This document shows, piece by piece, positions 462 through 53,298 of a stretch of 64,000 bases of DNA; the first letter of the stretch is position 1, and every line of letters begins with the position of its first letter. The notes under the pieces were generated by a model, which made no database searches, had not been told where the DNA came from, and worked only from the letters and a program-made list of their open reading frames with translations. The DNA is from a phage. A program made the position numbers and the translations under genes. Location of the stretch: the NCBI GenBank assembly GCA_032986305.1, contig GCA_032986305.1_3672.1. The stretch is one strand, 5' to 3'.

Positions 462-1445
462 ATGATGACAAAGTTAACTCTTGAGCAAATTTTAACACTA
501 AAGCAACAGGGATACACTAATAGACAAATTGCTCGTGAATTTTTAGGCCGTGAGTCACGTGAGAGCTGGATCCGACTACAGCTTAAACGTGCACAAGAGA
601 ATATGTCAGAGATTGTAGGAGAAGCAACGGAGCGCTTCCTTGAAGAGCACAAAGGTGCTAAAGTTTGGGTGTATGATACAGAGACATCCCCAACAAACGG
701 CTGGTTCTTTGGGCACTATAAGACCAACATTCAAACCTGTGGTATTGAAGTTATGCCTTATATGCTAACTTTCGCAGGTAAGTGGTTAGACAGCCCTAGT
801 GTGGTTGACTGCGCTCTTCCAGATTACAAAATGTGGGATGAGGATATTCACAATGATCTCGAATTGATTCAGGATTTGTGGTATTATCTGGATAAATGCG
901 ATGTCGCAGTAGCCCACAATTCAGGTTTTGACTGCGGGTGGGCCAACCAACGATTTGCATTTCACGGGTTGCCTCCAACAAGCCCCTACAAAGATGTTGA
1001 CACCCTTAAAATGATCAAAAAGGCATTCCGTTTGAATGCAAACACTTTGGAGTATGCATGCAAATACTTCCAACTGGCCCGACAGAAACTGATTGATCAC
1101 ACATTTGAAATGTGGATCAAGTGTGTCCATGGCGATCTTGAGGCATTTAAACAGATGCGGGAGTATAATGTTGGTGATATCCTGTCTCTGGAAGGACTGT
1201 ATTTGCTGGCTCGCCCGTTTGCTAAGCAGCACCCAAACATGTCATTGTACTACCAGGACGAGGAGCCAAAGGTTCGTTGCCCACGCTGTGGTGGAGAACA
1301 CTTTCACGAGGAAGAAGCTTTGGCATATACTCAGCTGAGTGCATTTAAAACATACCGCTGCGAAGGTTGTGGATCTGTTGTTCGTGACCGTAACAACATC
1401 CGTACCAGAGAAGAAATGAAAAACACCCTGATTCAGATAATCTAA
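462..1445 (+). CDS. DEDD-family (DnaQ-like) 3'-5' exonuclease with C-terminal zinc ribbon
   Basis: Motifs VYDTETS (Exo I D-x-E) and VAHNSGFDCGW (Exo II HN..FD), C-terminal CPRCG...CEGCG. Confidence 0.55.
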   Translation: MMTKLTLEQILTLKQQGYTNRQIAREFLGRESRESWIRLQLKRAQENMSEIVGEATERFLEEHKGAKVWVYDTETSPTNGWFFGHYKTNIQTCGIEVMPYMLTFAGKWLDSPSVVDCALPDYKMWDEDIHNDLELIQDLWYYLDKCDVAVAHNSGFDCGWANQRFAFHGLPPTSPYKDVDTLKMIKKAFRLNANTLEYACKYFQLARQKLIDHTFEMWIKCVHGDLEAFKQMREYNVGDILSLEGLYLLARPFAKQHPNMSLYYQDEEPKVRCPRCGGEHFHEEEALAYTQLSAFKTYRCEGCGSVVRDRNNIRTREEMKNTLIQII

Positions 1446-1453
1446 CAATTATA

Positions 1454-1481
1454 GGGAGGCTTGCGCCTCCCTTTTCCTTTT
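1454..1481 (+). terminator. rho-independent terminator
   Basis: Perfect stem GGGAGGC/GCCTCCC, loop TTGC, followed by TTTTCCTTTT; directly after stop of exonuclease gene. Confidence 0.6.
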
Positions 1482-1490
1482 GGAGGCACT

Positions 1491-2309
1491 TTGAGCAAGA
1501 AAGAGTCCAACGACAAATATTACACAAACCCTGAGTATGCAGAATATCTTGTTGGTAAAGTAAAAGACAAGTATGGGAATTGTGCATACGTTGAGCCTTC
1601 TGCTGGAAGGGGTTCTTTTTCAAAACTATTTTCAAAGATACTGTCGTACGATCTAGTACCAGATCCTGAATTTGAAGGACCAACACAGTGCATTCAGGCA
1701 AACTTCTTGGAGGTGCATCCCAAGGCAGATGTCTTCATAGGTAACCCACCATTTGGCAAGAATTCATCTTTAGCTTGCAAATTCTTTAACCATTGTGCAT
1801 CATTGCTAGAGCTTGGCGGGGCTATAGCCTTCATATTGCCACGGACATTTGAAAAAATATTTTTTGCAAACAAACTGGACATGTCTATGCACCTTGTCTA
1901 CAGCGAAAGGTGCCCTAAGAACTCGTTTTTACTTAATGGCAAACCTTACGACGTGCCATGTGTTTTCCAAATTTGGGAGAAAAAGGCGTGCAATAGGGAT
2001 CCTGTAGAGATTGGAGAGAATAAGTTATTTTCTTTTAGCACTCCAGATGACTACGACTTCTGTGTAAGACGTGTTGGGTATAATGCTGGAAAAGTATTGG
2101 GGGATGATGACCCAAAATCTGAAGAATCGACATATTTCATAAAATCTTTAGTTGACGGTGTTGACAGAGTGTTTGCCGAATGCTATTCTTCTTTTCAAGA
2201 AGAAGCAGGTAAGACTGCTGGAATGAAGAGTATAGGCAAGAAAGAACTACAATACATTTTGGAGACCCGGTATGATCAAAAGCATAGACTTGACCAAAGA
2301 ACTTACTGA
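1491..2309 (+). CDS. DNA N6-adenine methyltransferase (start uncertain, probably TTG 1491 after GGAGG)
   Basis: AdoMet motif EPSAGRGSF and catalytic motif IV GNPPFG; track ORF begins 1461 inside the terminator hairpin. Confidence 0.6.
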   Translation: MSKKESNDKYYTNPEYAEYLVGKVKDKYGNCAYVEPSAGRGSFSKLFSKILSYDLVPDPEFEGPTQCIQANFLEVHPKADVFIGNPPFGKNSSLACKFFNHCASLLELGGAIAFILPRTFEKIFFANKLDMSMHLVYSERCPKNSFLLNGKPYDVPCVFQIWEKKACNRDPVEIGENKLFSFSTPDDYDFCVRRVGYNAGKVLGDDDPKSEESTYFIKSLVDGVDRVFAECYSSFQEEAGKTAGMKSIGKKELQYILETRYDQKHRLDQRTY

Positions 2310-2730
2310 TGCAAAAGCTTTTGGTGAGACAGCGGTACAAAGAGGCCAGGCGATGGGACTGGCACTACCTTTCGTCTTAAAAGAGCACTTTACAGATTTT
2401 CAACTTATCAAAGGTGATAAGGGAATGCTTATCCTGGAGCATAAGTTGAGTAAGAAACGCTACAAAGTTGTTTTTAATTCTAAAGCCCCAACAAAACTTG
2501 GATTCAGAACTTACAATCTCAACCCATCCTATACTAAGGGTGTTGGAAGGGTAGAACAACAGCATTTCAGTGCTAGAGCTTCTTTAGCCCCTTTGATGCT
2601 AAATTTCTCAGGGGTGGCTTTAGGATACCTTGATAAGAAAAGAGTTCTTCATGTCCGTTTCACAGACTTTGTAACGCTTTTAGCTAACAACGAAGTTGAT
2701 GAAAAGGGACGTGTAAAAACAAACTTCTAA
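2272..2730 (+). CDS. hypothetical protein
   Basis: 152-aa ORF in co-directional operon. Confidence 0.4.
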   Translation: MIKSIDLTKELTDAKAFGETAVQRGQAMGLALPFVLKEHFTDFQLIKGDKGMLILEHKLSKKRYKVVFNSKAPTKLGFRTYNLNPSYTKGVGRVEQQHFSARASLAPLMLNFSGVALGYLDKKRVLHVRFTDFVTLLANNEVDEKGRVKTNF

Positions 2731-2745
2731 TAACGCATAGTATGA

Positions 2746-2949
2746 TTGGAGACCGCAATGACACTAAAGTTAACAATTACAGACAGCTTTTCAGAAAACT
2801 TTATCCCAGAAATGATGGGTAAGATGCGATCATTGCTTGATCAGATTGAGGAAGCTGTTTGGGAAGACGATGCTGTAGTGGCTAACGAGCTAGTAGATAA
2901 GTGTAAAAGTATTATTGATGCAGTTGAAGAATATCACGGAGGTTTTTGA
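2746..2949 (+). CDS. hypothetical protein
   Basis: 67-aa ORF; stop overlaps next start (ATGA). Confidence 0.4.
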   Translation: METAMTLKLTITDSFSENFIPEMMGKMRSLLDQIEEAVWEDDAVVANELVDKCKSIIDAVEEYHGGF

Positions 2950-3563
2950 TGGATATTATTGTTCTTAACGCCCCACCTAGCAGCGGCAAGGATCACATTG
3001 CAGATCTCTTGTTGGAAGCTATTCCTAACTCACACCACCGTGAGGTTAAGGAGATGCTCTTCAGTGTGGCAATTAAGGCAGCTGGTGTAACTCCTCAACT
3101 CTGGAATGCACTTTATGACCGCCACTACAAAGAAGAGCCTTGCCCTTTCTTAATGATAGACGGCAAGCATGTTTCTCCGCGAGAGTGGATGATCCATTGT
3201 AGTGAAAATCTGATTAAACCTATCTTTGGTGAAGATGCTTTCGGTAAGGCCGCAGTCACATCCTTGAAGAAAGATTTCCCTAAAGGTAAAGGGGTTGTTG
3301 TTTACTCCGATGGTGGATTCAAAGAGGAGCTGGCATGCCTTAGTGAGTACGCATACAGCACAGGTGGAGATCTGTTGTTGTTCCGTATTCACCGTGTCGG
3401 ATATGACTGGGGAAATGATTCCAGAACCTATCTAAGCCTGGAAAAGAACGGAATAAAAGGGATTGAGTTCGATGTTGTAAATCCTGAAGGTGCACCTTGG
3501 GAATGTGCATCGGAGATTGTGTGCAAGTATATTGATGCTAAAGAGGCCCAAGAAGAATGTTAA
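2949..3563 (+). CDS. deoxynucleoside monophosphate kinase-like protein
   Basis: N-terminal P-loop-like NAPPSSGKDHIAD resembling phage dNMP kinases (T4 gp1 type); SD GGAGG upstream. Confidence 0.5.
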   Translation: MDIIVLNAPPSSGKDHIADLLLEAIPNSHHREVKEMLFSVAIKAAGVTPQLWNALYDRHYKEEPCPFLMIDGKHVSPREWMIHCSENLIKPIFGEDAFGKAAVTSLKKDFPKGKGVVVYSDGGFKEELACLSEYAYSTGGDLLLFRIHRVGYDWGNDSRTYLSLEKNGIKGIEFDVVNPEGAPWECASEIVCKYIDAKEAQEEC

Positions 3564-4150
3564 TCGGAATTGATGTAGATTTGACACTGGTAGATTCAGG
3601 AACAGCATGGTGGGAGTGGTTGGAGCGTTTGTATGGTCCAGCCAGTAAGACAGTCGTTAAACCTTCTAATGGGCTGATGTATTACGATCTGTCAAAGTAT
3701 TGGCCTGATCGCCCCAAAGAAAACATCATAGGACCTTTTGATTTCTGGAGTGATCCGTTCCTCTACGACTTTCTTAAGCCTGAAGAGGGGGCTATTGAGG
3801 TTATGAAAGATTTGGTGGCTCGCGGTCACAAGCTCGCATTTATCTCGGTATGCAAGAAAGGTCACCTTGCATCTAAATCAAGGTTCTTAAAGCGCTGGAC
3901 CAGTGATTTTATGGATCTGGATGATCACACCCAGGGTCACGGCTTCTACGCCACACATTTCAAAGGTAATGTGGCTGTAGATGTTATAATTGATGACAGG
4001 CATGAATACCTGAACCAATTCGCTTCACGACCTGAAGTTATTAAAATCCTAAAAGACACGCCTTATGAGCAATTCGAAGAGTTAAAGGTCAGTGTTGACT
4101 ATACCGCTAATAGCTGGTATAAAATAGGAAAGTTTTTAGAAGGTATTTGA
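3557..4150 (+). CDS. HAD-superfamily phosphatase, 5'-deoxynucleotidase-like
   Basis: N-terminal HAD motif I IGIDVDLTL (DxDxT); context with nucleotide metabolism genes. Confidence 0.45.
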   Translation: MLIGIDVDLTLVDSGTAWWEWLERLYGPASKTVVKPSNGLMYYDLSKYWPDRPKENIIGPFDFWSDPFLYDFLKPEEGAIEVMKDLVARGHKLAFISVCKKGHLASKSRFLKRWTSDFMDLDDHTQGHGFYATHFKGNVAVDVIIDDRHEYLNQFASRPEVIKILKDTPYEQFEELKVSVDYTANSWYKIGKFLEGI

Positions 4151-4151
4151 A

Positions 4152-4352
4152 ATGGGCAGATGTTCTAAAGGTGGCGATCCTGTAGTCAGATACGGTGACT
4201 GGCTAGAGGTGTATGATCTGGGAGGTAAGCTGGTGTATGCCTCCAGGATCACCCAAGACATGTGCTCCGATATGTTCAACAGATACCTTGCATTTAAGGC
4301 TAACATAAACCCAGACGAAATTTCCAAAATTAAAACAAGGAGAGCTAAATAA
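4152..4352 (+). CDS. hypothetical protein
   Basis: 66-aa ORF, tight packing. Confidence 0.35.
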   Translation: MGRCSKGGDPVVRYGDWLEVYDLGGKLVYASRITQDMCSDMFNRYLAFKANINPDEISKIKTRRAK

Positions 4353-5335
4353 TGCTAAAACTGTGCACTGCAAAGATCATTGCTGACAGCATTTCCGAGA
4401 AAGGTAAGCGTATCACCACTTTTGAGCTAGAGTATCCTCGAATTATTCACTCAGAGCTTATGACACATCGAGTGTTCAGCCGAAACGCCATGTCTTCCCG
4501 TGCAGTGCCTGTAGGCAAGATGCTACAACAGATTGTGGAGAATCCGGCAATGCCAGTTCGCTTCGGTGTAAATAAGCGAGGGATGGAAGATGGTGGGAAG
4601 CACGATCAAAAGATCCGTGTAGAGTACACCGACATGGAGCTAACTCCTGAAGAGTTTTGGAAAGAAGCTGCAAAAAACGCCGCTTGGCATGCAGAGAAGT
4701 TCGCCCTTGCTGGTTACCATAAGCAAGTATGTAACCGCTTAGTGGAGCCGTTTCAGCGCATGAAAACAGTTGTAACAAGCACAGAGTGGAATAATTTCTT
4801 CCATCTCCGTTGTTGGCACGATGCTGACCCTACTATTCAGATGTTGGCTAATTGCATGTGGGAGGCTCTTATGAATAGCACTCCTGAAATCCTTAAACCG
4901 GGTCAATGGCACACTCCATATGTAGAGCACGTTTATTTGGACGGAGAGTTTAACTACGCTGTACGTGACACAGAAGGAAAGCTCTGTATTCTCGATACTA
5001 AAGAAGCTCTGTCTATTAGTGCTAGTTGCTGTGCACAAGTATCTTATCGAAATATTGACAGCACGTTTGAAAAGGCAGATAGTGTGGCTAAAAAATTGAT
5101 TGGTGGGGATCGTATTCATGCAAGCCCTTACGAGCACCAGGCAACACCTATGGATCACGATAACGCAATGGAACGTTTAAACTACTATCTATCTTCATGT
5201 GAAATCACACAAGACAGCTGTGTTTGGCAGGAAGGTGTAACCCATCAAGACCGTGATGGTAAATTCTGGTCTGCCAACTTTTGTGGGTGGGTTCAGCACA
5301 GACAACTGCTTAATAACCACTTTGTGAAAGGTTAA
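4352..5335 (+). CDS. thyX: flavin-dependent thymidylate synthase ThyX
   Basis: ThyX-type signature HR-x7-S-x-R (MTHRVFSRNAMSSRA); SD AAGGAG upstream. Confidence 0.6.
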   Translation: MLKLCTAKIIADSISEKGKRITTFELEYPRIIHSELMTHRVFSRNAMSSRAVPVGKMLQQIVENPAMPVRFGVNKRGMEDGGKHDQKIRVEYTDMELTPEEFWKEAAKNAAWHAEKFALAGYHKQVCNRLVEPFQRMKTVVTSTEWNNFFHLRCWHDADPTIQMLANCMWEALMNSTPEILKPGQWHTPYVEHVYLDGEFNYAVRDTEGKLCILDTKEALSISASCCAQVSYRNIDSTFEKADSVAKKLIGGDRIHASPYEHQATPMDHDNAMERLNYYLSSCEITQDSCVWQEGVTHQDRDGKFWSANFCGWVQHRQLLNNHFVKG

Positions 5336-9857: not shown

Positions 9858-10714
9858 AAGTTGTAAAACGGGACGGTAGAGAAGAGGTCTATAACGGAAT
9901 TAAGGTGATCAAGGCGGCAGAGTCCGCCTTACTTGAGTCTGGACATACTGAAGAAGAAGCTTACCGGATCGCCTGCGCGGTTAATGAAGTTGTTGCTAAC
10001 AATCTACCAACCGACCAGTGCACGATCTCTGTAAAAAATATCCATATCCTTGTTGAAGACGCTCTTATGGATATGGGTTTAAAATGTGCAGCCAGAGAAT
10101 ACATCCAGTATAGGCAGACAAGAGATAATAACAGAGAGGCAGGTGGAAAACTGCTTGCAGATATTAGTGGCTTCTTGGATCGCACTTGTGATGAATTTAC
10201 AAAAGAAAACGCAAATAAGCCTACCAATCATGTACACACTCATCGTGACCTGCTTGCAGGCATCCTTAGCAAACACCTTGCATCAACACAGATCCTGCCA
10301 GACCGTGTCTCAGAAGAGCACAATAAAGGCTTCATCCATGTGCATGATCTTGACTACTTGATCAGTCCGTTAACAAACTGTTGTTTGGTAAATTATCCAG
10401 ATATGTTGGAAAACGGATTCAACATTGGTAACGCCCATGTCAGTAAGCCGAAGTCAATAGGGGTTGCAACAACAATCCTTAGCCAAATTTCTAGTGCAGT
10501 AGCTAGTGCTCAGTATGGGGGTCAGACTATGAGCCATATTGATCATTATCTGGCACAGTATGCTGAGGCGACCTATGAGAAGAATCTTAAATTTTGCCAG
10601 GAACACTGGTTGCCAGATGCTGAGACTGTTGCAATGCAAATGACAGATAAAGACGTATTTGACAGCATGCAGACTTTGCTCTATCAAATCAATACGTTAA
10701 CCTCTGTCAACGGT
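9854..10714 (+). CDS. nrdD: anaerobic ribonucleotide reductase NrdD, exon 1
   Basis: ATP-cone start MKVVKRDGREE..., conserved NCCLVNY; frame stops at TAA that begins intron-like sequence. Confidence 0.8.
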
Positions 10715-11271: not shown

Positions 11272-12033
11272 AAACTATAACTGCTCATGTAAAATCTATC
11301 TAAACGGGGAAACTCCAGAACGGACAATCCCGTGCTAAACGTAACAGAACTCCTGACCAAGAGGAGTCCTGAAATGAGAAAACAAATTCGTGATTTTGAA
11401 GGTTATGAAATTGACGAGATGGGCAATGTTTATTGCACCCGCTACGAAAATGAAAGAATTATTCATTCGTGGGAAGAGATAAACACAGGTTACCGTCTTG
11501 TTAGGATACGCAAGAACAAAAAGACTGTTTGCCTAAGGGTTCACAGACTTGTTGCTGAAGCGTTCTTACCAAATCCAGACAATTTACCCTATGTTAAGCA
11601 CAAAGGGGACAACAGGAAAGATAACAGTGTATACAACCTTGAGTGGGGAGCTTGCCCAGACAATACGCAAGAAGGATACAACAACAACTGTTATGCTTTT
11701 TACACAAGATGCCACGGTGTGAAAGCCACCAACAAATTAACTGGTGAGGTTTTCCACTTTAAAAGTCTGAGATGTTGTGCTGATGTTTTAGGAGTGGATA
11801 GAAAAAGAATATCTGCTATCCTGAAACGTGGTGCGCCTAATAACTATGATTACGAGTTCTGTTACGAAATGCCTAACGACTAACCGTGATGAATGTAGCG
11901 GTGTAGGGTGTAAGCCGATGACACTCGAAATGGTAGACACACTAAGTGTGAAGATATAGTCTGATCTGCATGGGAACATGCAGCAGCACGTAAAGGTGCG
12001 GGGGTGGACTTGCGAACCACCCTGAACATAATG
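11272..12033 (+). mobile_element. group I intron 2 in nrdD carrying HNH endonuclease ORF
   Basis: 5' part AAUCUAUCUAAACGGGG...CAAUCCCGUGCUAAA and 3' part GAUAUAGUCUGA...GCAUGG...CAUGCAG...AUAAUG strongly resemble T4 td-type group IA2 intron core. Confidence 0.65.
11374..11883 (+). CDS. intron-encoded HNH homing endonuclease
   Basis: HNH_3-type motifs GYRLVRIRK...VHRLVAEAF...HK.G...DN...NLEW; SD AAGAGGAG before ATG. Confidence 0.8.
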   Translation: MRKQIRDFEGYEIDEMGNVYCTRYENERIIHSWEEINTGYRLVRIRKNKKTVCLRVHRLVAEAFLPNPDNLPYVKHKGDNRKDNSVYNLEWGACPDNTQEGYNNNCYAFYTRCHGVKATNKLTGEVFHFKSLRCCADVLGVDRKRISAILKRGAPNNYDYEFCYEMPND

Positions 12034-12996
12034 TGTAGAAGTTTCTTATCGAAATATAGCGACCCTGTAACAGGCGAGGAGAAATACCTTGGCAGATTTA
12101 ACTTAGGCGTTGTTAGCCTTAACCTGCCAATGATTGCGGCAAAAGCCAAGACGGAAGGTGTTGATTTCTTTGCAGTTCTTGACGAATACTTGGATCTTGC
12201 ATACGAGGCTCACCTTGTAAGGGTTAATCGTCTAAAAGGAACAAAGGCAGGGCAGAACCCCATCATGTGGTGTGAAGGCGCTCTTGCTCGCCTGGATCCT
12301 GAAGAGAGTGTTGATAAACTCTTCTATGACGGGTACGCTTCCATCAGTATTGGGTATATTGGTGTGTATGAAACCTGTCAGATTTTGGGTAGAGAGGGTG
12401 ACAAGGCTTTAGCTCTTGGAATCCTTCAGCACATGAGAGATGCTTGTGAGCGATACAAGAAGGAAAGTAGACTAGCGTTTAGCTTGTACGGCACTCCTTC
12501 TGAGAGTCTATGCTATAAAGCTGCAACCTGTCTGGATCGTGAATATCCGGAAGTGTTGAAGCACGAGCATGAATATCTCACCAACAGTTTCCATCAGCCA
12601 GTATGGATAAATAGCTCTCCTTTTGATAAGTGGGAGTATGAGGAAGGTTTTGCTATGATCTCCTCTGGTGGCAACATCGGATACGTAGAAACACCTAACC
12701 TGAAAAACAACCTGGATGCTTTAGAGGCTCTTGTTGACTTCGGGTATAAACATATTATGTACTTCGGTATAAACCAGCCTGTTGACCAATGCTTCAAGTG
12801 CGGTTTCCAGGGAGAATTTAAAGCCTCTCCAAGAGGTTTTATATGCCCTTGTTGTGGAAACCATGAGGAGGGAACGATCAGTGTAATTAGACGTGTGTCT
12901 GGATACCTTTCCAGTCCTAACTCCCGTCCTTACAATAAAGGTAAGCAAGCGGAAGTTATAGAACGGGTTAAGCACTATGGAAGTTGTAGTTGCTGA
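12034..12996 (+). CDS. nrdD: NrdD exon 3 (glycyl radical domain)
   Basis: C-terminal zinc site CFKCG...CPCCG and glycyl-radical motif RRVSGYL. Confidence 0.8.
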   Translation, partial: CRSFLSKYSDPVTGEEKYLGRFNLGVVSLNLPMIAAKAKTEGVDFFAVLDEYLDLAYEAHLVRVNRLKGTKAGQNPIMWCEGALARLDPEESVDKLFYDGYASISIGYIGVYETCQILGREGDKALALGILQHMRDACERYKKESRLAFSLYGTPSESLCYKAATCLDREYPEVLKHEHEYLTNSFHQPVWINSSPFDKWEYEEGFAMISSGGNIGYVETPNLKNNLDALEALVDFGYKHIMYFGINQPVDQCFKCGFQGEFKASPRGFICPCCGNHEEGTISVIRRVSGYLSSPNSRPYNKGKQAEVIERVKHYGSCSC

Positions 12997-24507: not shown

Positions 24508-24777
24508 ATGAAAATTAAATTATTCAAAACTGAGCTGGCAGACAAAAACTGTGGACTGGTTGAAGGCATGATTGTTGAAGCACAACCAGTGGACTATATG
24601 AAGGTGGTTCGTGATGCACTGGGTGAAGGCTTTGATCTGATGGAGCCAGCTCTGCGAGAAGATGTTATCGAGATGGCTAAAAAGCACACACCTGAAGGCT
24701 TGGTGGTGTTTGTTGCACCAGGTAACGGAGAAGAGTTGATTGTAACTCCTGATGTGTATGAGATTGTAGAAGGGTAA
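24508..24777 (+). CDS. small acidic protein
   Basis: SD GAGGAGA. Confidence 0.4.
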   Translation: MKIKLFKTELADKNCGLVEGMIVEAQPVDYMKVVRDALGEGFDLMEPALREDVIEMAKKHTPEGLVVFVAPGNGEELIVTPDVYEIVEG

Positions 24778-27959: not shown

Positions 27960-28265
27960 ATGGCTAAATCTAAAGTTGAACTGTTCACCTCTCTTCCTTC
28001 TGACACTGCAGAGCGTGATCGCCTTCGCAAGACAATCGAAGAACTGGTTGAACTCCAACTTCAGATTAAAGATCTGAAAGATGCCATTAAGGATATCATT
28101 CTCGTTGAGAAGCAGGATCATCTGTATTCTCCTAAATTCATCAAATCTCTGGTGGCTACCGAGTTCGATATTCGCTATGAGGCTGAAAAACGTCGAGCTA
28201 AAATCGAAGAAGAGGTTGAGCACATGTCTGAGGCAGACATTCTGTTCAAACGCTCTGTAGAATAA
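27960..28265 (+). CDS. hypothetical protein
   Basis: SD AAGGAGA. Confidence 0.45.
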   Translation: MAKSKVELFTSLPSDTAERDRLRKTIEELVELQLQIKDLKDAIKDIILVEKQDHLYSPKFIKSLVATEFDIRYEAEKRRAKIEEEVEHMSEADILFKRSVE

Positions 28266-28953: not shown

Positions 28954-28978
28954 CAAAATATCAAATTTAAGACACCTA

Positions 28979-29009
28979 GGACGCTCTGTGGCGTCCTTTT
29001 CTTTATTTA
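28979..29009 (+). terminator. rho-independent terminator
   Basis: AGGACGC-tctgtg-GCGTCCT followed by TTTTCTTTATTT. Confidence 0.6.
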
Positions 29010-29165
29010 GTGCACGATTGCATACCTTGGACAGATAATCTCATTACAGAGCGTTTAAGAGCTTCCTGCAAACAACTCCATATTTCGAGCGTAGCGAGAA
29101 CGCACGTCCGTTTTGACCAAAATCACCATACGCTCGGATTTTAACCAAACCCTCGCGGCGTTTAT

Positions 29166-29194
29166 GTTGACACATTACCGCTCTCGTGATAGTA
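29166..29194 (+). promoter_or_regulatory. sigma70-type promoter TTGACA-17-TAGTAT
   Basis: Consensus -35 with 17-bp spacer. Confidence 0.45.
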
Positions 29195-29227
29195 TCCACA
29201 CATAGTTTGTAGAATATGGAATACACA

Positions 29228-29320
29228 ATGAAAACATTGTCCGAAGTTTTGGTAGTGATCCTGATGATCATTACGTCCATAGCAGCTGTTGCCGGAATAC
29301 TCACGGGTGGAACATGATCA
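29228..29320 (+). CDS. small hydrophobic peptide (30 aa)
   Basis: Downstream of promoter; TM-like sequence. Confidence 0.3.
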
Positions 29321-29526
29321 ACACACATGTATCTGAAGAGACATCCAAAGGGGTGACCATCTGTCACTTGGCTGAGCCAGTGCAAGAGGAAAACTTCGAT
29401 TCTGAAGATTCTCCATCTTCGCTACAGGTAGATCCTGAGGCTGATGACCTGACGTGGGAGGACATCGTAGATATCTGGTTCTCTATTATGCCTGAGCACG
29501 AAGAGTTCAGGGGTGGTAGACTATGA
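29314..29526 (+). CDS. small acidic protein
   Basis: ATGA overlap with preceding peptide. Confidence 0.35.
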   Translation: MINTHVSEETSKGVTICHLAEPVQEENFDSEDSPSSLQVDPEADDLTWEDIVDIWFSIMPEHEEFRGGRL

Positions 29527-29565
29527 AGCACCGAGCCCACACAGGTTCCTCATGCTAAAGCATGG

Positions 29566-30754
29566 CCTGAAGAGGCAAACGTGCATAATTCCTGTGCATT
29601 GGAACGTATGAAACCCTGTTCACACTCTCATTTCCAGAGGAGATTTCATGAAGATAGAAATATTTGGTGGAGCTGACAACACTCGTGGCCTGATTTACCT
29701 TGAATTCGATGAATCATACCTGCCAGAGGTGTTAAATATAAACTCTGTTGCTGAGGCTTTGGGAGTAAACCCTAAAGAACTCCACTCTTGTGCTGAGATC
29801 GATGGTTGGGAAGAGACCATGAACATTGATTTCAGTGAAGTAGAGGATGAACCGCTGGACTGACACACAATTAGCTGCCCGGCTAAAGTGCTGGAAGCAC
29901 CTATAACACATCTTTCAACTAAATTTCCCACCACCACAATCACTTACCTCCCACACATGACTGTTTGCTTGTTTAGTGAGCAGTCATGCCTTGACATTCT
30001 TGCCTATCCTGATAAAATTAAGTTCTTCTCTTTTCTTTTACCGAGTAATTCGGGTTTTCTGTTCTCTTCGGTTTGAAGAGGTATGGAGATACACCTGAGT
30101 GAACAGGGTGAACAACCGAACCATTGGCTATGGCATTAGCATGGCGAAGCGGACGGGTGACGAAAGAGGGGCCGGAGGACACCAGTCACTGCCATATGAT
30201 ATACGGGTGATAACCTGAAGAGTCTGAATAAGTGTTTAAGTACCAGTCAGAGGAAAAGGTGAATGGTAGCCGAAGGGGGAGGGGGGTTTCTTGTATCTTT
30301 AATTTGTATATTATGTATACACTTGTAAACCAATCTCATCTGAATCTGTTTACTACACAAAGCTGATAGGGACAAATATTACCTATTAAACTTGAATTAT
30401 TTATAGAAAATACCACAACACAACTTAAGTCTTTGATTTTACACACAAATCCTGCAGATATTCACCCTCCATATTTAACATACTTGTAACATATTCCATA
30501 CTCTACCTACCTGATCAATTTACCCACCAACATCCTCCATATTTTCCCTGTCTGTACCACCCCTGCCCCGCCGGGAGTCCCGTCATATCTGGCTTTCCAG
30601 CAAATATCACACCCACAAATATCATTGCCTGAAGAGGATTTCATCTCATAATACATGCCTTGCCTGAAGAGCGCTTCATACACCACGTAAATTTTTTAAT
30701 TGACCCCCTCCCCGCCGCCGGAGAGGTTGGCTTTTCCCACACAGACCTGAAGAG
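29566..30754. repeat. five dispersed copies of 9-mer CCTGAAGAG
   Basis: Exact copies at 29566, 30214, 30628, 30663, 30746 within non-coding DNA. Confidence 0.6.
29648..29863 (+). CDS. small acidic protein
   Basis: SD GAGGAGA; last plus-strand gene before noncoding region. Confidence 0.4.
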   Translation: MKIEIFGGADNTRGLIYLEFDESYLPEVLNINSVAEALGVNPKELHSCAEIDGWEETMNIDFSEVEDEPLD

Positions 30755-31279
30755 TCAGCCAGAAATATCTGAATGGACCCAATTCTGCCCTGTTATGAGC
30801 CGTAGCTACTGGAGTGCTGCCAGGCGGACGAAATGGGAATACTTCTCATTCTTATAACAATTCTCAAATATCAAGGCAGTGAGTCAAATTAATAGGCGAG
30901 GCCGTTCACACAGTGGCACAACATTTGCAACCTATCTTGTGGGGGTGAATGAGAATACCTATCATTGTGAGAATAGTTATCATTACGGGCAATTTAACAT
31001 AATACCCATTATGCGCACCACTGGCGATACATACAGGGATTGATAACATGAGTTACTGTTTACGCATATAACAATTATATTTCTTACTATTTGTGTGGGA
31101 TATAGTTAGCAGCCAATAGATTAGATATTGACCTGTAGACTTCCAACCGTCTAGACGTCTAAACGCCCACACAGCAAGGGTTATACATACACTTCTGAAT
31201 GTAAACAGGGCCGCAAAAATGCTACCATACCAGTTTGTAAATTTTTCATGCAGCACTTGACAAAGAGGAGAAAAACTTG

Positions 31280-31440
31280 TCTGACACTTTAGACACAATA
31301 GTGACATACTATGACACCTTTGACACTTTTGCATACCTGATTGTTTGCATGTCTAATAGTTTACATGGATAACTGTTCACATACTTATCATTTACATGAT
31401 TGACTGTTTACACAAATATGATAAGCCATGACATTCGTTT
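31280..31440. repeat. iteron-like direct repeat arrays (TGACAC(T)TT x3; GTTTRCAY x7 at about 16-bp period)
   Basis: Read directly: tttgcat, gtttgcat, gtttacat, gttcacat, atttacat, gtttacac, gtttgcat in series. Confidence 0.55.
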
Positions 31441-31500
31441 GCATGAAAACAATTAACAAGATAACAATTGACAAGCTAACAGCCAACAAGCTGACAATTA
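31441..31500. repeat. four tandem 15-bp repeats (consensus NTAACAATTRACAAG)
   Basis: aaaacaattaacaag / ataacaattgacaag / ctaacagccaacaag / ctgacaattaacagg. Confidence 0.55.
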
Positions 31501-31517
31501 ACAGGTTAATAATATAT

Positions 31518-31687
31518 GACATAATATAAAAGCAGGGCAACTATTAGCAGATCTATAGTTGCCTTGCTTGTTATGTCATGATTAACTAAATACAAGGCAA
31601 CTATGATCTGATTAATAGTTTGCAGACAAACTATCACGGGGGTGATTGTTACTGCTTTTATATTATGTCGCGACTCCGTCGCGACAT
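31518..31687. repeat. nested inverted repeats (18-bp IR GACATAATATAAAAGCAG, inner palindromes, GTCGCGAC x2)
   Basis: 18-bp perfect inverted repeat at 31518-31535 and 31654-31671; GGCAACTAT-n-ATAGTTGCC; ATAGTTTG-caga-CAAACTAT. Confidence 0.55.
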
Positions 31688-32307
31688 GTCATTCGTTTGC
31701 ATAGTTGCCTTATTGTTACGGATAAAATAATTGTATTGTTAATTATTTCTTATCTTTCTCTTAGTCATCTAATGATTCCAGTCAGTATAGTAATGTACAG
31801 TAAACATTAGACGACTAAATATTTCTCTGATTATAGTAACCTATCGTGACAATTTCGGACTGTTTACGAAAAATGTTGACACCTGGGCAGGTTTATGTTA
31901 TGCAGTTTGTACGAATAATTATTTTATACAGGTATTGACTATTCCGTTATTCTGTGGTTGGAATAAATACTTTGCAGGCTATAGAATGATGTTCGTACGT
32001 GAATTCTGAGATCTGTCGGCTATAGTTACACCCGATTTTTCACGTAGGACACGCTTTTTGGTTTGTGTAAGTGTATGACTTATAAGGGTTTTTAATTGTT
32101 GACAGTATGCTGAAAATGTGCATCAGGTTAAATTTTGTGCAATAGCTGCATTACGTGCGTTTTTGGAAGGAAAAACGTGTAAAAATGACCCTGCTACCAC
32201 AAGATGAAAGATTATGCAATAGTTATTTTATATGTATATTTGTACAGTGTGCGGGATTAATGGCTCGTCAATTATTCCACTTGCCAGGTAGGGCCGTTTA
32301 TGGTAGG

Positions 32308-32344
32308 AAAAGAGCAAACAAAAAGAAAGGGGCCTAAGCCCCTT
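32308..32344 (-). terminator. rho-independent terminator (minus strand; potentially bidirectional)
   Basis: AAGGGGC-ctaa-GCCCCTT with U-run on minus strand, immediately downstream of minus gene stop at 32356. Confidence 0.55.
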
Positions 32345-32355
32345 GATAATGTTTA

Positions 32356-32703
32356 TTATTTGTTTCTCATCCAGCTTTCCCAAGCTGCCTGATAATCTGC
32401 CTCACTGCGGCGGATCTCTTCTTGCTCTTCAAGCCGGATCTCTTCTTCCAGGTACCCCAGGATATCAGCCTTTTTGGTCTGGCGTAACATCCAATCATCT
32501 TTTTTACGAGTAAAGATCTTGTACGCTTTCTCGCAAACCTCCTTTTTACTACCTTTTTGGACTTCAATAACTTTGTAGGCCATGTACTGAACTAGTTTGA
32601 GCTGATCAAGGCGTTTCATGATGTTTTCCTCTTTATGGGGTTCTGGTTTGGTGGGCCTTTTGGCCCGTGTCATTATCTTATTACTTACGGCGGCAAAATT
32701 CAA
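32356..32703 (-). CDS. hypothetical protein
   Basis: 115-aa ORF followed by terminator. Confidence 0.45.
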   Translation of the reverse strand: MNFAAVSNKIMTRAKRPTKPEPHKEENIMKRLDQLKLVQYMAYKVIEVQKGSKKEVCEKAYKIFTRKKDDWMLRQTKKADILGYLEEEIRLEEQEEIRRSEADYQAAWESWMRNK

Positions 32704-32953
32704 GTGTTTTTAATTGATAATCTTCTTCAGCCTGAAGTACAACCGCTTCAATCATTTCGTTGGCATTGTTGAAGCCATACCCTTGAGCGAACTCATCCGC
32801 GCCACCTTTGTGATCATGTTCTGCGTTCATCGCTTCCACAAAATGGAATTCAAGATTATTGAGGTAAGGGCTTGATGTTCCGTCCTCTTTTTCGATGAGA
32901 TCCCAGATAGCATTAAAACGTGATTCAACTTTTTGATTAATCCAGCTTGACAT
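32681..32953 (-). CDS. hypothetical acidic protein
   Basis: Own promoter (TTGACA-17-TAACAT at 33008-33036) and 5' UTR hairpin. Confidence 0.45.
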   Translation of the reverse strand: MSSWINQKVESRFNAIWDLIEKEDGTSSPYLNNLEFHFVEAMNAEHDHKGGADEFAQGYGFNNANEMIEAVVLQAEEDYQLKTLEFCRRK

Positions 32954-33062
32954 AATGTTTTCCTCTCTTCTGGTTGTTGTGTGGGCACTTTTGCCCCTTC
33001 AAGATAAATGTTACCTAACCACCTGGCAGATGTCAACTGTTTTTATAGTTTTTATATAACGG

Positions 33063-34662: not shown

Positions 34663-34947
34663 TTATTTATTGATAGCGTGCAGCGGGAAAGGTACGCCAG
34701 GTTGATAGATAACTTTTACAACCTCATCAGGGCAAAAGAAGTTGCAGAACTCACCGCAATAGGCCTCATCCTCTTTCAACTCTTCATCAACATACTCAAA
34801 AAAGTAGTCGATGCTTGGATAATCTTGCCCTGGGTTATAGTCAACCATTGTCAGGACTAGTTCAAGATCGTTGCGTAGGATATGCATACCCGCTTTTAAG
34901 TATTTTGCTTCCATTTCTACTACATCGCCAACGGTAACAATAGCCAT
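34663..34947 (-). CDS. hypothetical acidic protein
   Basis: SD GGAG; 94 aa. Confidence 0.45.
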   Translation of the reverse strand: MAIVTVGDVVEMEAKYLKAGMHILRNDLELVLTMVDYNPGQDYPSIDYFFEYVDEELKEDEAYCGEFCNFFCPDEVVKVIYQPGVPFPLHAINK

Positions 34948-50285: not shown

Positions 50286-50601
50286 CTGTGATCTGGAACG
50301 GGACTCCCATCATTTTAGAAGCTTGCCAGAAGCAATGCACCACCATTTCACCCACAGGGCTCCAGATAAGTTCAAGCTTTCCGTCATCGTTCAGGATAGG
50401 ATCGTACACCGTGTTTCCGTCTCTGTCAACCACCTCGTTTCCGTTTTCATCCTTGCGTGCCTTTTTGTACTTATGACCGTCGAACACATGAAGTTTGGCT
50501 TCCTGCTCTGCCTTAAATGCTTCCAGTTCTTCAATTGTGTCGAAGGTGTACACAGTCTTATACTTAGGTGTGTCAGGGACCTGAAGTTGGTACTCATCCA
50601 A
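50245..50601 (-). CDS. hypothetical protein
   Basis: 118 aa. Confidence 0.4.
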   Translation of the reverse strand: MDEYQLQVPDTPKYKTVYTFDTIEELEAFKAEQEAKLHVFDGHKYKKARKDENGNEVVDRDGNTVYDPILNDDGKLELIWSPVGEMVVHCFWQASKMMGVPFQITGEYLCGRNWGDCH

Positions 50602-50868
50602 TAGTTCAGGTAGGTCGTTAAGCTACCCCGCACCATTACGTGCATAGCCATACGTTTTCACGTAGGATCGGACCATCTCATATTCCTATGATAAGCAACC
50701 ACAGGAATCCTCCCATTTCGACCGCACTTGCTGGTCTACTTCCTTTCGGAATGGCCTCTGAGCGTTCGCTCTTTTGAGCGCTTCGTTGCGGATTACCTTG
50801 CCATAAGGTTTAGGCTTCCCGCAGTTAAAGAGGTTATTCGACATAGATTACTCTATGAAGCCACAATG

Positions 50869-53298
50869 TTATTTATGGTAATAAATAATACGACGAACAC
50901 CTTCATCGTACCACCCACGCTTCACCATTTGGTGGTGCATGAGTATCCCAACTAAGTCACACAGCGATGCACCACCATTCTGTTGGTATGCATTAAGTAA
51001 AGAGTGTTTAGATCGGGTCCAGATGGCATGACCATCAAAAGAGTAGATAAACTTCTTACCCGTTGCTTCCCAGAATTTCTCCAGATCCTCTTTACGCCCC
51101 TTAAGACCAGGGTTGGCATCCCAAAGTGCATCGATTACCCTTTGTCCCAACTCTGGAGAGATGTCCAGCATATCTGCAACTTTATCTTTTTGTGCCCCGT
51201 ACATAACCCCATACGTGATAGGTTTACCGTCGTTACGGGACACCTCTCTGCCTGCTACTTTTGTATATGCCTCAGCATTGTTTTGGTGTGCGTCTCCGTT
51301 ACTTACAACATCGTAATACAGGCCGTTGTCGAACTCAAAGGCACCCCAAGCCCCGATAAGCTGCTCTAAGTTGGACCCGTCGATACCGATCTCAAAGTAT
51401 CCTGGAGGAACACCCCACAAGCTACGCATCTCTTTACCCATAACCACTTTAGGAGAGGGTTTAGGCATGTTTGCACAAATACTGTGTTTCTGTCTGGAAG
51501 TGTTTGTTAATCCAGAGCTTTTAGCAGGAAGCTTATGGTCAATCTTCAAGCGTGGGTGATTAAGAAGACCAGTATCAACCTTATCCTCCTTGATCGGATC
51601 AAGGACCGATCTGCGGTTTCGCAATGATAACCACAAGACGATATCTTTAGCCATCTCTCCGTTCAATTTTTCAAGATTCGGACATAGGTGTCCAAACGTA
51701 TCTTTCAGTTGCGGAGAAGTAATAAGTGCCCTAGCTTTTCTACGTATTTTCCTGAATACTTCCTTTTTAATCCTTTCGGAGTTAGGAAAGCTTCGGAACT
51801 TGTGCACAGTTGTCTGGAACTTAGCATCAGTTTTGTTCCAGAAGTTGATAATTAGGTCACAATACTCTGACTCCAAAAGCTCGTCCATATATGCATATAC
51901 TCGTGCATCAACATCTGCATCAGGTAAAGCTTTCTTCTTGCTGTCTTTAGTTACATCCTTAGTTCTCCACATTGTCGGAAGCCAGCCAGCACTGATCAGG
52001 TATCGCTTAATGTCGTCCTGGTTGCTGATTTTCATAGGTATCTTGCAGTCCGGCATTCGCTTCTGCTGTAGATCACTTATTGCCTGATCCATCAACTCTT
52101 TAGGTAAAGGGTGTGGTGTGGAAGTGCCCTTAATATAGCCTCTCAAGAAATCAGCCATCTTATCGGGGTCTTTGCATCCCATCTCTTCACACCATTTTAT
52201 CCCCATCTTGCTGACATCTCCTGTAGAGGTAAATGCTCTCTTAGGCGGGGCTTTGAACTCTAAAGCGCTCATGTCTACAGGATATCCAAGCTTATCTTTT
52301 AACCATTTCCAACCATTATTAGAGATTGTCCCGTCTTGGTTAAACGGCTTTTCAGGGAACTTGGGCCGCTGAGACATTGACAGCTCTTTTAAAGGCAGTT
52401 GTGGTTCAACACGATCAGCGATTTCTTTCATCCACGCATCGCAACGGTCACGTAAAGCAATAGCTCCATCTATGTCGAAATATACGCCCTGACGGGCCTG
52501 CAGCTCCATCAGGAAGTGCTGCAGCATACCTCGGCGCAATGCGTTCTTCCAGGTGATCTTCTTGAACCCTTTTGGCTTCTCTTTGGCAGGATCGTACATA
52601 AAGTTCTGCATGTCAGATTTGCCGTAGAATACACCTTTTGATTCCGCTACCAGCTCTTTCCAGAGCAACTCCTGGATGATAACGTCCTCGAATACACGAT
52701 CCACATACTTCCACAACGGAAGATCGCGCCAGTCATCAATTTGAACTTTCTGGTTACCAAGGGCGTAGCCCCATGCCATAAGGCCGTGAGGACCAACAGG
52801 CTGCATTTTCTTAGTAACCGGGTTGAATACAGCGTCCGGACAACCTTTTGGTAAAGGGCGATCAGGCCACAAGATTCGGCTCATCGCCAACGTATCAAAC
52901 AGGTTAACCTGGTGGTCGTTGATAGTCCCCATACATTTAGGATCACGGAACATATCAAAATGAATACCGGATAATCTCTCCATCAGCATAAAGTCATAAC
53001 TATAGCAGTTATGGCAGTTCAAAGCTGTTGGTGACCAGTCGGAATTGCCTGTAAGCCAACCTTCCAACTCCGAAAAATCTGCTATGCGAACTTCAAAATC
53101 TTTATAAAGAGCTTTCTTTGCCAGAATAAAGTTCTTAGCCTTCTCTATATCCTCCTCGGAGTAGTGTGTGCGGTCATTTAGAGGGAGGAACAGCATAAAA
53201 CGGTTCTTATTCAGCTCTTTAAACAGGCCGCAGTGATAATAAAGATCTGGGTCTTCCAAAAGCCCGGAGGCCTCAAAATCGAAGCTATACATGCTCAT
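50869..53298 (-). CDS. family A DNA polymerase (T7 gp5-like) with 3'-5' exonuclease domain
   Basis: Exo I FDFEASGL; motif A GIDGSNLEQL (cf. T7 DASGLELR); motif B RNDGKPITYGVMYG; SD AAGGAG. Confidence 0.75.
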   Translation of the reverse strand: MSMYSFDFEASGLLEDPDLYYHCGLFKELNKNRFMLFLPLNDRTHYSEEDIEKAKNFILAKKALYKDFEVRIADFSELEGWLTGNSDWSPTALNCHNCYSYDFMLMERLSGIHFDMFRDPKCMGTINDHQVNLFDTLAMSRILWPDRPLPKGCPDAVFNPVTKKMQPVGPHGLMAWGYALGNQKVQIDDWRDLPLWKYVDRVFEDVIIQELLWKELVAESKGVFYGKSDMQNFMYDPAKEKPKGFKKITWKNALRRGMLQHFLMELQARQGVYFDIDGAIALRDRCDAWMKEIADRVEPQLPLKELSMSQRPKFPEKPFNQDGTISNNGWKWLKDKLGYPVDMSALEFKAPPKRAFTSTGDVSKMGIKWCEEMGCKDPDKMADFLRGYIKGTSTPHPLPKELMDQAISDLQQKRMPDCKIPMKISNQDDIKRYLISAGWLPTMWRTKDVTKDSKKKALPDADVDARVYAYMDELLESEYCDLIINFWNKTDAKFQTTVHKFRSFPNSERIKKEVFRKIRRKARALITSPQLKDTFGHLCPNLEKLNGEMAKDIVLWLSLRNRRSVLDPIKEDKVDTGLLNHPRLKIDHKLPAKSSGLTNTSRQKHSICANMPKPSPKVVMGKEMRSLWGVPPGYFEIGIDGSNLEQLIGAWGAFEFDNGLYYDVVSNGDAHQNNAEAYTKVAGREVSRNDGKPITYGVMYGAQKDKVADMLDISPELGQRVIDALWDANPGLKGRKEDLEKFWEATGKKFIYSFDGHAIWTRSKHSLLNAYQQNGGASLCDLVGILMHHQMVKRGWYDEGVRRIIYYHK

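Follow-up and report, generated by a model that had tools for sequence, protein, structure and literature searches.

What does a phage keep in 2.5 kb of DNA that carries no gene? The question is raised by positions 29864-32355 of a phage DNA stretch of 64,000 nucleotides (contig GCA_032986305.1_3672.1 of the NCBI GenBank assembly GCA_032986305.1; the whole stretch is called the window in the following), which lie between the last gene of the plus strand and the stop codon of the first gene of the minus strand and are packed with short repeats. A first-pass annotation, made from the sequence alone, read these repeats as a candidate iteron-type replication origin or control locus. The analysis described here leads to a different answer: the gene-free stretch is likely a concatemer junction at which genome ends bearing short direct terminal repeats (DTRs) meet, combined with a site for the host Xer recombinase that probably serves in cyclization. 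Three features come in addition to those of the first-pass annotation, i.e., a dif-type site at 30992-31019, the genome termini and a near-invariant core at 29964-30300.

A conserved non-coding locus of rV5-like phages

By blastn, the ~2.5-kb stretch matches about 120 phage records, all of the genus Vequintavirus, with 87-94% identity, and zero matches were obtained beyond this genus. The source phage is a Vequintavirus, i.e., an rV5-like E. coli myophage, and the stretch is the grey box labelled "non-coding" in the rV5 genome paper of 2013, where no function was assigned to it; rV5 coordinates 104013-106618 are described there as being without open reading frames (ORFs), with convergent transcription units on either side (PMC3606486).

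That 29864-32355 holds no credible ORF had been claimed before and is borne out by the absence of codon-level selection in an alignment of the window with 17 relatives (18 Vequintavirus genomes). In the flanking genes, the variable columns follow a strong 3-base period (p ≤ 0.0015), which is absent throughout 29900-32449 (all p > 0.05). The ORF calls of other annotators inside the stretch are mutually inconsistent, and hidden small genes were considered and rejected, as the ORFs kept in all relatives are confined to near-invariant DNA and show no codon periodicity. Scans for tRNAs and small RNAs, which had been suggested as a check, found no tRNA or tmRNA in the window, and the Rfam scan of the region gave nothing at gathering score and nothing meaningful at E ≤ 10. 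These results support a conserved, truly non-coding, cis-acting locus. Its conservation is uneven, with 5% variable columns in the core 29964-30300, 18% in the DTR and 95% in the repeat arrays.

Genome ends and direct terminal repeat

Two positions inside the region recur as the start or end of several records that come from different laboratories. EdH4 and HdK5 were sequenced by PacBio, their contigs were linearized at abrupt read ends and terminal redundancies of 458 bp were reported (Korf 2019; PMC6563267). In the HdK5 record, the first 459 nt equal the last 459 nt, the record start corresponding to window position 30823 and the record end to 31281. YN3, deposited by another laboratory, starts at the left boundary of HdK5 and ends, by match coordinates, at the equivalent of 31281, where several further records also break. 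The Klebsiella phage KPP-1 (Mydovirus) was shown to possess a 514-bp DTR by twofold coverage and PhageTerm and was classed as T7-type (PMC9862379), and for the Erwinia phage Hena1 (Henunavirus) DTRs of 519 bp are annotated at 1-519 and 148324-148842. Cross-genus alignment revealed that the independently determined DTR boundary pairs of the HdK5-type phages, KPP-1 and Hena1 are homologous base for base. The left boundary is marked by the motif G(A/G)CGGAC and the right boundary by CTTGACA-N10-GAAAA/T-N-TGT(T/C), which ends at the cut; four genera can be aligned at these boundary motifs. A corresponding gap between convergent genes, 1.9-2.3 kb long, is found in PVP-SE1 (Seunavirus) and Av-05 (Avunavirus). 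In PVP-SE1 it has conserved islands that are colinear with the window, and in Av-05 it holds a dif site and a matching left-boundary motif.

The features at the ends are the following:
30823-31281, unstranded: DTR of 459 bp; by homology to mapped relatives, the left virion end would start at 30823 and the right end stop at 31281
31254-31281, plus strand: conserved right-terminal sequence CACTTGACA-N10-GAAAA-N-TTGTC, ending at the cut; PVP-SE1 and, at their right DTR ends, KPP-1 and Hena1 align with it
30950-30984, plus strand: 18-bp tandem repeat of 1.9 copies just left of the dif site, given as repeat_region in naswa and Alma
31282-31326, plus strand: WGACAY array of five copies (31282, 31291, 31302, 31312, 31321) with ~10-bp phasing, starting at the first base after the right cut
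31327-31444, plus strand: (G/A/T)TTYRCAY array of seven copies with a period of ~16 bp

The alignments thus show the predicted DTR to span 30823-31281, and the window holds a single copy of it because it represents the junction form. The linear virion DNA would begin at 30823, end at 31281 and carry the 459-bp repeat at both ends, with 29864-30822 as untranslated right-end DNA and 31282-32355 as untranslated left-end DNA; both neighboring gene blocks are transcribed toward the ends. Most likely, the boundary sequences together with the TGACAY and GTTYRCAY arrays would act as recognition and cutting signals for the terminase and for duplication of the DTR, as at the junction of T7 and T3.

The T7/T3 junction is similar in that it combines a short DTR with untranslated DNA on either side, arrays of short motifs in or next to the repeat and promoters close to the ends (here the predicted promoter at 29991-30018). 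The T7 DTR is 160 bp long, compared with 459 bp here. In T7, the first 340 nt contain 11 exact copies of CCTAAAG, which lie within the DTR and directly behind it and are followed by promoters. In the window, copies of the CCTGAAGAG/CCTAAAGAG type lie left of the DTR and TGACAY lies at the cut; homology is not implied by this CCTRAAG resemblance. Further differences are that the flanking genes are here transcribed toward the ends and not inwards, that the arrays differ in sequence and phasing, that T7 has no dif site and that T7 is a 40-kb podovirus while the source phage is a 137-kb myovirus. As far as the literature was searched, the link between the non-coding box of 2013 and the 458-bp terminal redundancy of 2019 is new, as is the conservation across genera of the boundary sequences and of an inverted repeat described below.

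A dif-type Xer site within the terminal repeat

The strongest island shared with PVP-SE1 reads ATTTAACATAATACCCATTATGCGCACC, which is the reverse complement of E. coli dif. In the window the site is:
30992-31019, minus strand: dif-type Xer site GGTGCGCATAA-TGGGTA-TTATGTTAAAT (XerC arm, center, XerD arm), matching E. coli dif at 26/28 positions

Both mismatches are in the 6-nt center and the XerC and XerD arms match at 11/11 positions each. A search with the dif 28-mer gave this match only (2 mismatches), and 0/100 shuffled sequences contained one. The reference 28-mer was confirmed as chromosomal, as it occurs exactly in at least 120 genomes, mostly of Enterobacterales (E. coli, Klebsiella, Erwinia, Enterobacter). 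Within Vequintavirus, the 38-nt dif island is at least 99% identical in 118 phage records, and the only polymorphism of the site among the 18 aligned genomes is one central base (TGGGTA in 16, TAGGTA in 2). Sites of the same type were found in six genera of Vequintavirinae:

Window (Vequintavirus): XerC arm GGTGCGCATAA, center TGGGTA, XerD arm TTATGTTAAAT
Av-05 (Avunavirus): XerC arm GGTGCGCATAA, center CGTGTA, XerD arm TTATGTTAAAT
Hena1 (Henunavirus): XerC arm GGTGCGCATAA, center GGTGTA, XerD arm TTATGTTAAAT
PVP-SE1 (Seunavirus): XerC arm GGTGCGTATAA, center CGTGTA, XerD arm TTATGTTAAAT
KPP-1 (Mydovirus): XerC arm AGTGCGTATAA, center CGTGTT, XerD arm TTATGTTAAAT
PBES 02 (Certrevirus): XerC arm AGTGCGTATAA, center GGTGTA, XerD arm TTATGTTAAAT

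In all six the XerD arm is 11/11, the XerC arm has 0-2 changes and the center is never that of the host, from which it differs at 2/6 positions in the window and at two or three in the other five genera. Invariant arms around a free, non-host center are what selection for binding of XerC and XerD predicts. By its arms and its pattern of conservation, 30992-31019 is shown to be a true dif-type site as judged from sequence, and it lies within the DTR in all three genera with mapped ends, i.e., the HdK5-type phages, Hena1 and KPP-1. No paper linking Xer or dif with Vequintavirinae or with the terminal repeats of virulent phages was found within the literature searched, and to that extent a host-type dif in the terminal repeat of a virulent phage subfamily is new.

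Among dif sites with perfect arms in IMG/VR, 36/50 have the host center TGTATA, mostly on small contigs, and the six sites on contigs longer than 100 kb all differ from it in the center. Two further large viral contigs of IMG/VR, of 154,976 bp and 261,806 bp, carry perfect-arm sites with the non-host centers GACATA and TGTGTA, respectively. In the 154,976-bp contig the site lies 276 nt into the retrieved locus, which resembles the situation in Hena1; the placement of dif in or beside terminal repeats may extend beyond Vequintavirinae.

Proposed cyclization of the injected genome by host XerCD

Each virion DNA would carry two directly repeated dif sites, one per end. The host XerCD recombinase would bind the copy in each terminal repeat, and recombination between both copies would result in a unit-length circle and a 459-bp linear by-product. 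Since XerCD pre-exists in the host, such a cyclization would need no phage protein and would hide the ends from RecBCD. The non-host center (TGGGTA compared with TGTATA of the host) favors recombination of phage site with phage site over integration at the host dif and would block recombination with the chromosome. XerCD binding and the role in cyclization are what we infer from these sequence features, and cyclizing the injected genome appears to be the likeliest use of the site. The wider proposal, that in Vequintavirinae (rV5, PVP-SE1, CR3-like, Mydo-like, Hena1, Av-05) each terminal repeat carries a dif and XerCD circularizes the injected genome before phage genes are expressed, is put forward tentatively. 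If true, these would be the first lytic phages that use Xer recombination for cyclization of the genome instead of integration.

A precedent for a recombination site in a terminal redundancy is phage P1, which, in work by Sternberg and co-workers in the 1980s, was reportedly found to cyclize its terminally redundant DNA by Cre-lox when lox is located in the redundancy. In analogy, exchange between the end copies would circularize the genome here without homologous recombination. However, P1 uses its own recombinase Cre, while the proposed enzyme is the host XerCD, present before phage expression, and P1 packages by headful so that lox lies in the redundancy of some virions only, while dif would be at both ends of every virion of the phages discussed here.

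Several observations weigh against parts of this proposal. At dif, recombination by XerCD normally depends on activation by septal FtsK, and no phage-encoded Xer activator was found. The label "DNA translocase FtsK", given in some records to the 87-aa gene at 32356-32619, was rejected as a spurious annotation, as the protein has no match to FtsK-gamma or any other Pfam family. FtsK orienting polar sequence (KOPS)-like motifs of the type GGGNAGGG occur three times within 30276-30713, one pointing toward dif and two away from it, and the pattern is inconsistent between the genera; no consistent polarity that would steer FtsK toward dif was seen. The main text of a preprint on genetic screens covering 27 rV5-like phages does not mention xerC, xerD or ftsK, which suggests that Xer is probably not essential in the laboratory. 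Phage I29 (ON286975.1, locus 638-4597) contains a 543-bp tandem duplication equivalent to 30497-31039 and with it two direct dif copies ~590 bp apart; this argues against efficient Xer recombination because Xer should delete the duplication, unless it is an assembly artefact. The duplication can be read in two ways, as an assembly error at the terminal repeat or as a hint of poor recombination between phage dif copies by Xer.

The termini themselves are also subject to objections. Two papers describe Vequintavirus genomes as circularly permuted or headful-packaged by PhageTerm, which conflicts with fixed ends, and the end positions given here were transferred from relatives by homology. The long-read end mapping was given more weight than the PhageTerm reports, because it agrees with two other genera. 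The role ascribed to the arrays in terminase action is based on their position alone, and the arrays are specific to the genus.

Resolution of multimers as a possible rival use of dif

Closest to cyclization is a use of dif, like that of the plasmid sites cer and psi, to resolve multimers of circular intermediates or to cut circles from concatemers rather than to cyclize incoming DNA. We regard this as a possible explanation and a close rival. The sequence evidence for dif bears on it in the same way as on cyclization: as in chromosomal dif and in cer/psi, an 11-nt XerC arm, a 6-nt center and an 11-nt XerD arm are present and the XerD arm is the better conserved one. Moreover, the center differs from that of the chromosome as in plasmid cer/psi, and a non-host center fits the logic by which plasmid sites avoid recombination with the chromosome. 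What sets the phage site apart from all of these is its place in the terminal repeat of a virulent phage. For resolution, any non-coding position would do, but the site is located inside a DTR of ~0.5 kb in the three mapped genera, an argument that is weakened by their shared ancestry, and a phage that packages from concatemers would gain little from resolving them.

The right-end segment and its near-invariant core

The segment on the right-end side of the junction comprises the following features:
29864-30822, unstranded: unique non-coding segment adjoining the right genome end; no codon periodicity, ending at the left DTR boundary of HdK5 and YN3
29964-30300, plus strand: near-invariant core of 337 nt, 5.3% variable columns (adjacent gene 19%, DTR 18%)
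29991-30018, plus strand: predicted sigma-70-like promoter, TTGACA-16-TAAAAT with TG extension, 11/12 consensus positions, pointing to the right terminus
30041-30063, plus strand: short terminator-like hairpin with T-run, ~20 nt past the predicted transcription start, invariant in relatives
30214-30754, plus strand: four copies of CCTGAAGAG (30214, 30628, 30663, 30746)
30275-30286, plus strand: G5AG6 run followed by TTT, containing the KOPS-like GGGGAGGG
30557-30577, unstranded: C-rich island CCACCCCTGCCCCGCCGGGAG, conserved across genera and colinear with PVP-SE1 24725-24745

The segment 29864-30822 has a mean identity of 94.5% to the window in the 17 relatives, and its core is more conserved than any neighboring gene. 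The 100 nt around the promoter-like site (29964-30063) are 99.6% identical across relatives; this site is the best of its kind within 29000-33000, and at a similar place the sequence of PVP-SE1 reads TTGACG-17-TACTAT. Including a fifth copy at 29566, five exact plus-strand copies of CCTGAAGAG had been noted, and all are found, with 8 in the whole window compared with 0.47 expected; they are conserved in relatives with a one-base change in the 30663 copy of phage FV3 as the single exception. PVP-SE1 contains six copies of YCTRAAGWG in the homologous stretch, 160-550 nt to the left of the DTR predicted for it. The G-poor stretch at 30400-30700 is likewise real (G 10.3% compared with 21.7% for the window). 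A second copy related to CCACCCCTGCCCCGCCGGGAG is located at 30703-30726, and the island at 30557-30577 contains a KOPS-like motif on the minus strand.

These features raise the question of whether the core 29964-30300 is a non-coding RNA gene, i.e., a regulatory or decoy RNA or a primer or processing transcript like phiOR of T7. The promoter-like site followed by hairpin and T-run, the small share of variable columns, the G-rich segment ending in G5AG6-TTT and the five CCTGAAGAG copies on the same strand, which fit a strand-specific signal, all point in this direction. The core, however, has no Rfam match even at E ≤ 10 and no blastn match outside the genus or in E. coli. Its folding energy is no better than that of shuffled sequences on either strand (30022-30300, z -0.86 and -0.06), and the variation is too low for a covariation test. 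In the literature searched, no transcriptome for this phage group was found. An RNA gene is considered doubtful. A large structured RNA was also tried and rejected, with no signal in 30022-30300 (z -0.86/-0.06) or 30022-30780 (z +0.17), as was a hammerhead ribozyme, as CCTGAAGAG contains CUGANGA yet no ribozyme family appears in the Rfam scan at E ≤ 10.

Repeat arrays and the left-end segment

In addition to the WGACAY and (G/A/T)TTYRCAY arrays listed above, the left-end segment contains:
31449-31513, plus strand: 15-bp tandem repeat of the AACAA type, four copies; not conserved in the genus, with other sequence in most relatives
31518-31535 / 31652-31669, unstranded: perfect 18-nt inverted repeat, identical in 18/19 relatives examined
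31536-31563: GGCAACTAT-N10-ATAGTTGCC within the inverted repeat, with an imperfect second copy at 31596-31623
31664-31688, plus strand: hairpin of two GTCGCGAC octamers
31427-31444 and 31685-31702, plus strand: 18-nt direct repeats CATG(A/T)CATTCGTTTGCAT, bounding a deletion in FV3
31721-32355, unstranded: distal part of the unique non-coding segment by the left end; 89.5% mean identity, no codon periodicity
32327-32344: hairpin AAGGGGCCTAAGCCCCTT, fitting the terminator of the minus-strand gene that stops at 32356

Nearly all of the repeats that had been listed earlier were recovered at the stated places, some of them in corrected form. The TGACAC(T)TT repeats are present, not in three copies but as five WGACAY copies ~10 bp apart. 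The 16-bp period of the GTTTRCAY array holds, but only four exact copies are found in 31328-31444, and degenerate copies such as GTTCACAT and ATTTACAT have to be included to reach seven. The four copies of the 15-bp repeat were found at 31449-31513, the octamer GTCGCGAC is duplicated at 31667 and 31678 and both copies form one hairpin, and the arms of the 18-nt inverted repeat are 100% complementary, the second one starting at 31652 rather than at 31654.

The array block 31282-31517 contains many insertions and deletions in addition to its 95% variable columns, and conservation returns, unlike in the array block, in the block of the inverted repeat. TGACAY is the first element past the right cut in 19/19 relatives, with 2-6 copies in the 18 for which the full array was extracted, and GTTYRCAY gives 1-7 strict matches per relative and more with degenerate copies. 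A perfect long-range inverted repeat is present 155-400 nt inside the left end in five genera, with arms of 18-22 nt that are 116-204 nt apart. The arms are homologous between genera and have changed together (GACATAATATAAAAGCAG, GACACTATAACACGAGAG, AGCGACACAATAACACGGGAG, GACACAATAACGCAGTAG, AGCCACCTATAAACGCTGATAG), which suggests paired binding sites or a cruciform or hairpin. PVP-SE1, KPP-1 and Hena1 lack the arrays and all keep DTR, dif and inverted repeat. FV3 lacks 31445-31702, a deletion exactly between the 18-nt direct repeats with the copies joined, and retains DTR, dif, TGACAY and GTTYRCAY. The elements lost in this way (15-bp array, inverted repeat, GGCAACTAT palindromes, GTCGCGAC hairpin) are dispensable as long as the record of FV3 is accurate.

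An iteron-type origin, in which an initiator would bind the phased repeats in 31282-31513 and the AT-rich DNA beside them would be opened, was the original reading and could coexist with the terminal repeat. It has several features in its favor: the GC content is lowest here (34.8% over 31001-32000, 33% over 31282-31760), direct repeats with 10-bp and 16-bp phasing lie beside AT-rich DNA as in iteron origins (lambda ori, P1 oriR, iteron plasmids), the cumulative GC skew switches at this place, and the types of repeat motif are kept in all relatives, their absence from relatives having been named in the first-pass annotation as an observation that speaks against it. However, copy number and sequence of the arrays vary widely, the arrays are confined to the genus and part of the repeat block is deleted in FV3. 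The repeat cores have 6-8 nt compared with iterons of 17-22 bp, and neither a cluster of DnaA boxes nor an adjacent initiator gene was found: the region contains a single DnaA box, with a count in the window below chance, and no Rep or initiator family is among the 25 of 41 matched Pfam families listed (115 ORFs of the 64-kb window). Transcription changes direction where the skew switches, as also stated by the authors of the rV5 paper, in which the switch falls in the non-coding box (PMC3606486). Taken together, the iteron origin has not stood up well and is judged unlikely.

T7 has secondary origins at promoters beside both ends. An origin beside the ends of the genome discussed here, as in T7, would be possible but is unsupported.

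Integration at the host dif, an improbable reading

Elements termed integrative mobile elements exploiting Xer (IMEX), including CTX-phi, VGJ-phi, TLC-phi and gokushovirus prophages, exploit host Xer via dif-like sites (PMC6744903; PMC7062461). That the phage is an IMEX-like module and integrates via dif into the host chromosome in a hidden lysogenic or carrier state is very improbable and largely refuted, as, in spite of the similar sites carried by TLC, filamentous and gokushovirus prophages, megablast of the region against 5,426 complete E. coli genomes gave no match, the sole part of 29900-31300 resembling E. coli in a sensitive search of these genomes is a 46-nt dif locus, and the center is non-host in all six genera, unlike in the 36 host-type IMG/VR sites; IMEX are small and integrate at the host dif, and most perfect-arm sites on small viral contigs, which are of the kind to be expected for IMEX, have the host center, while this phage is large and virulent and was not found integrated.

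One E. coli match was inspected; it is a canonical dif and is similar to the phage site in its immediate flanks as well. The neighbors of the host dif copy in E. coli Combat2C1 (NZ_CP019243.1 345243-348288) are small hypothetical genes and a gene encoding a protein with a secretin N-terminal domain; a filamentous-phage-type IMEX has probably integrated at this dif, with the locus as its junction.

Neighboring genes and further observations

Left of the last plus-strand gene, ~700 nt (28954-29647) also lack codon periodicity and are annotated inconsistently in relatives; the first CCTGAAGAG copy (29566) falls within this stretch. The 71-aa gene at 29648-29863 does show codon periodicity. The untranslated terminal domain may reach left of 29648, with the 71-aa gene as an island within it. 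Further upstream, 27960-28262 (plus strand) encodes a 101-aa protein with at least 99% amino-acid identity in 115 phage records, which is 42-60% conserved in other genera of Vequintavirinae in a different genomic context. In some records it is called a transcriptional regulator or a dsDNA-binding protein, and its sole Pfam signal is a sub-threshold GapR-like match (E 0.04). The use of this protein as a synteny marker was abandoned, as its homologue is located elsewhere in PVP-SE1 and 4MG and the equivalent locus was not located by it. On the other side of the stretch, 34666-34947 encodes a 94-aa protein that is confined to the genus.

Among the database records, 19 of the series MG0656xx (e.g., MG065644.1 and MG065690.1) are named "Campylobacter phage" with the host Campylobacter jejuni and are ~90% identical over the region; several are unusually long (140-143 kb), and the host given for them appears doubtful.

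GATC is over-represented in the whole window (337 sites compared with 231 expected; 0/100 shuffles reached 337) and sparse in 29864-32355, with 4 sites in 2.5 kb, 2/4 of them in the spacers of the GGCAACTAT palindromes. A cluster of Dam sites was rejected, GATC being depleted in the non-coding region and not clustered.

Two genes in the window are apparently interrupted or split. On the minus strand, an Rfam group I intron was identified at 50649-50884 (64.7 bits, E 4e-14), between an 809-aa ORF with a DNA polymerase A domain (50872-53298) and a downstream 86-aa ORF (50394-50651), and the DNA polymerase gene appears to be interrupted near its 3' end; in the rV5 paper, introns are described for the terminase gene only (PMC3606486). 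The plus-strand gene nrdD, encoding the anaerobic ribonucleotide reductase, is split into an N-terminal part (10067-10714) and a C-terminal part (12031-12993), with an HNH/NUMOD endonuclease ORF (11374-11880) between them and no Rfam intron at gathering score at this place.

Implications for Vequintavirinae

The rV5-like phages are among the coliphages most commonly isolated and are used in cocktails for therapy and biocontrol, and their genomes are routinely deposited with arbitrary starts or said to be circularly permuted. With the real ends placed in the "non-coding" box, a correct genome map and candidate packaging signals would be obtained. If the dif site works as proposed, a virulent phage would depend on, or profit from, a housekeeping recombinase of its host at the first step after DNA entry. 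This would bear on how genomes with terminal repeats escape RecBCD and become templates for replication, on host range, as the dif arms are common to Enterobacterales, and on phage engineering, as cassettes flanked by dif would be excisable by the host.

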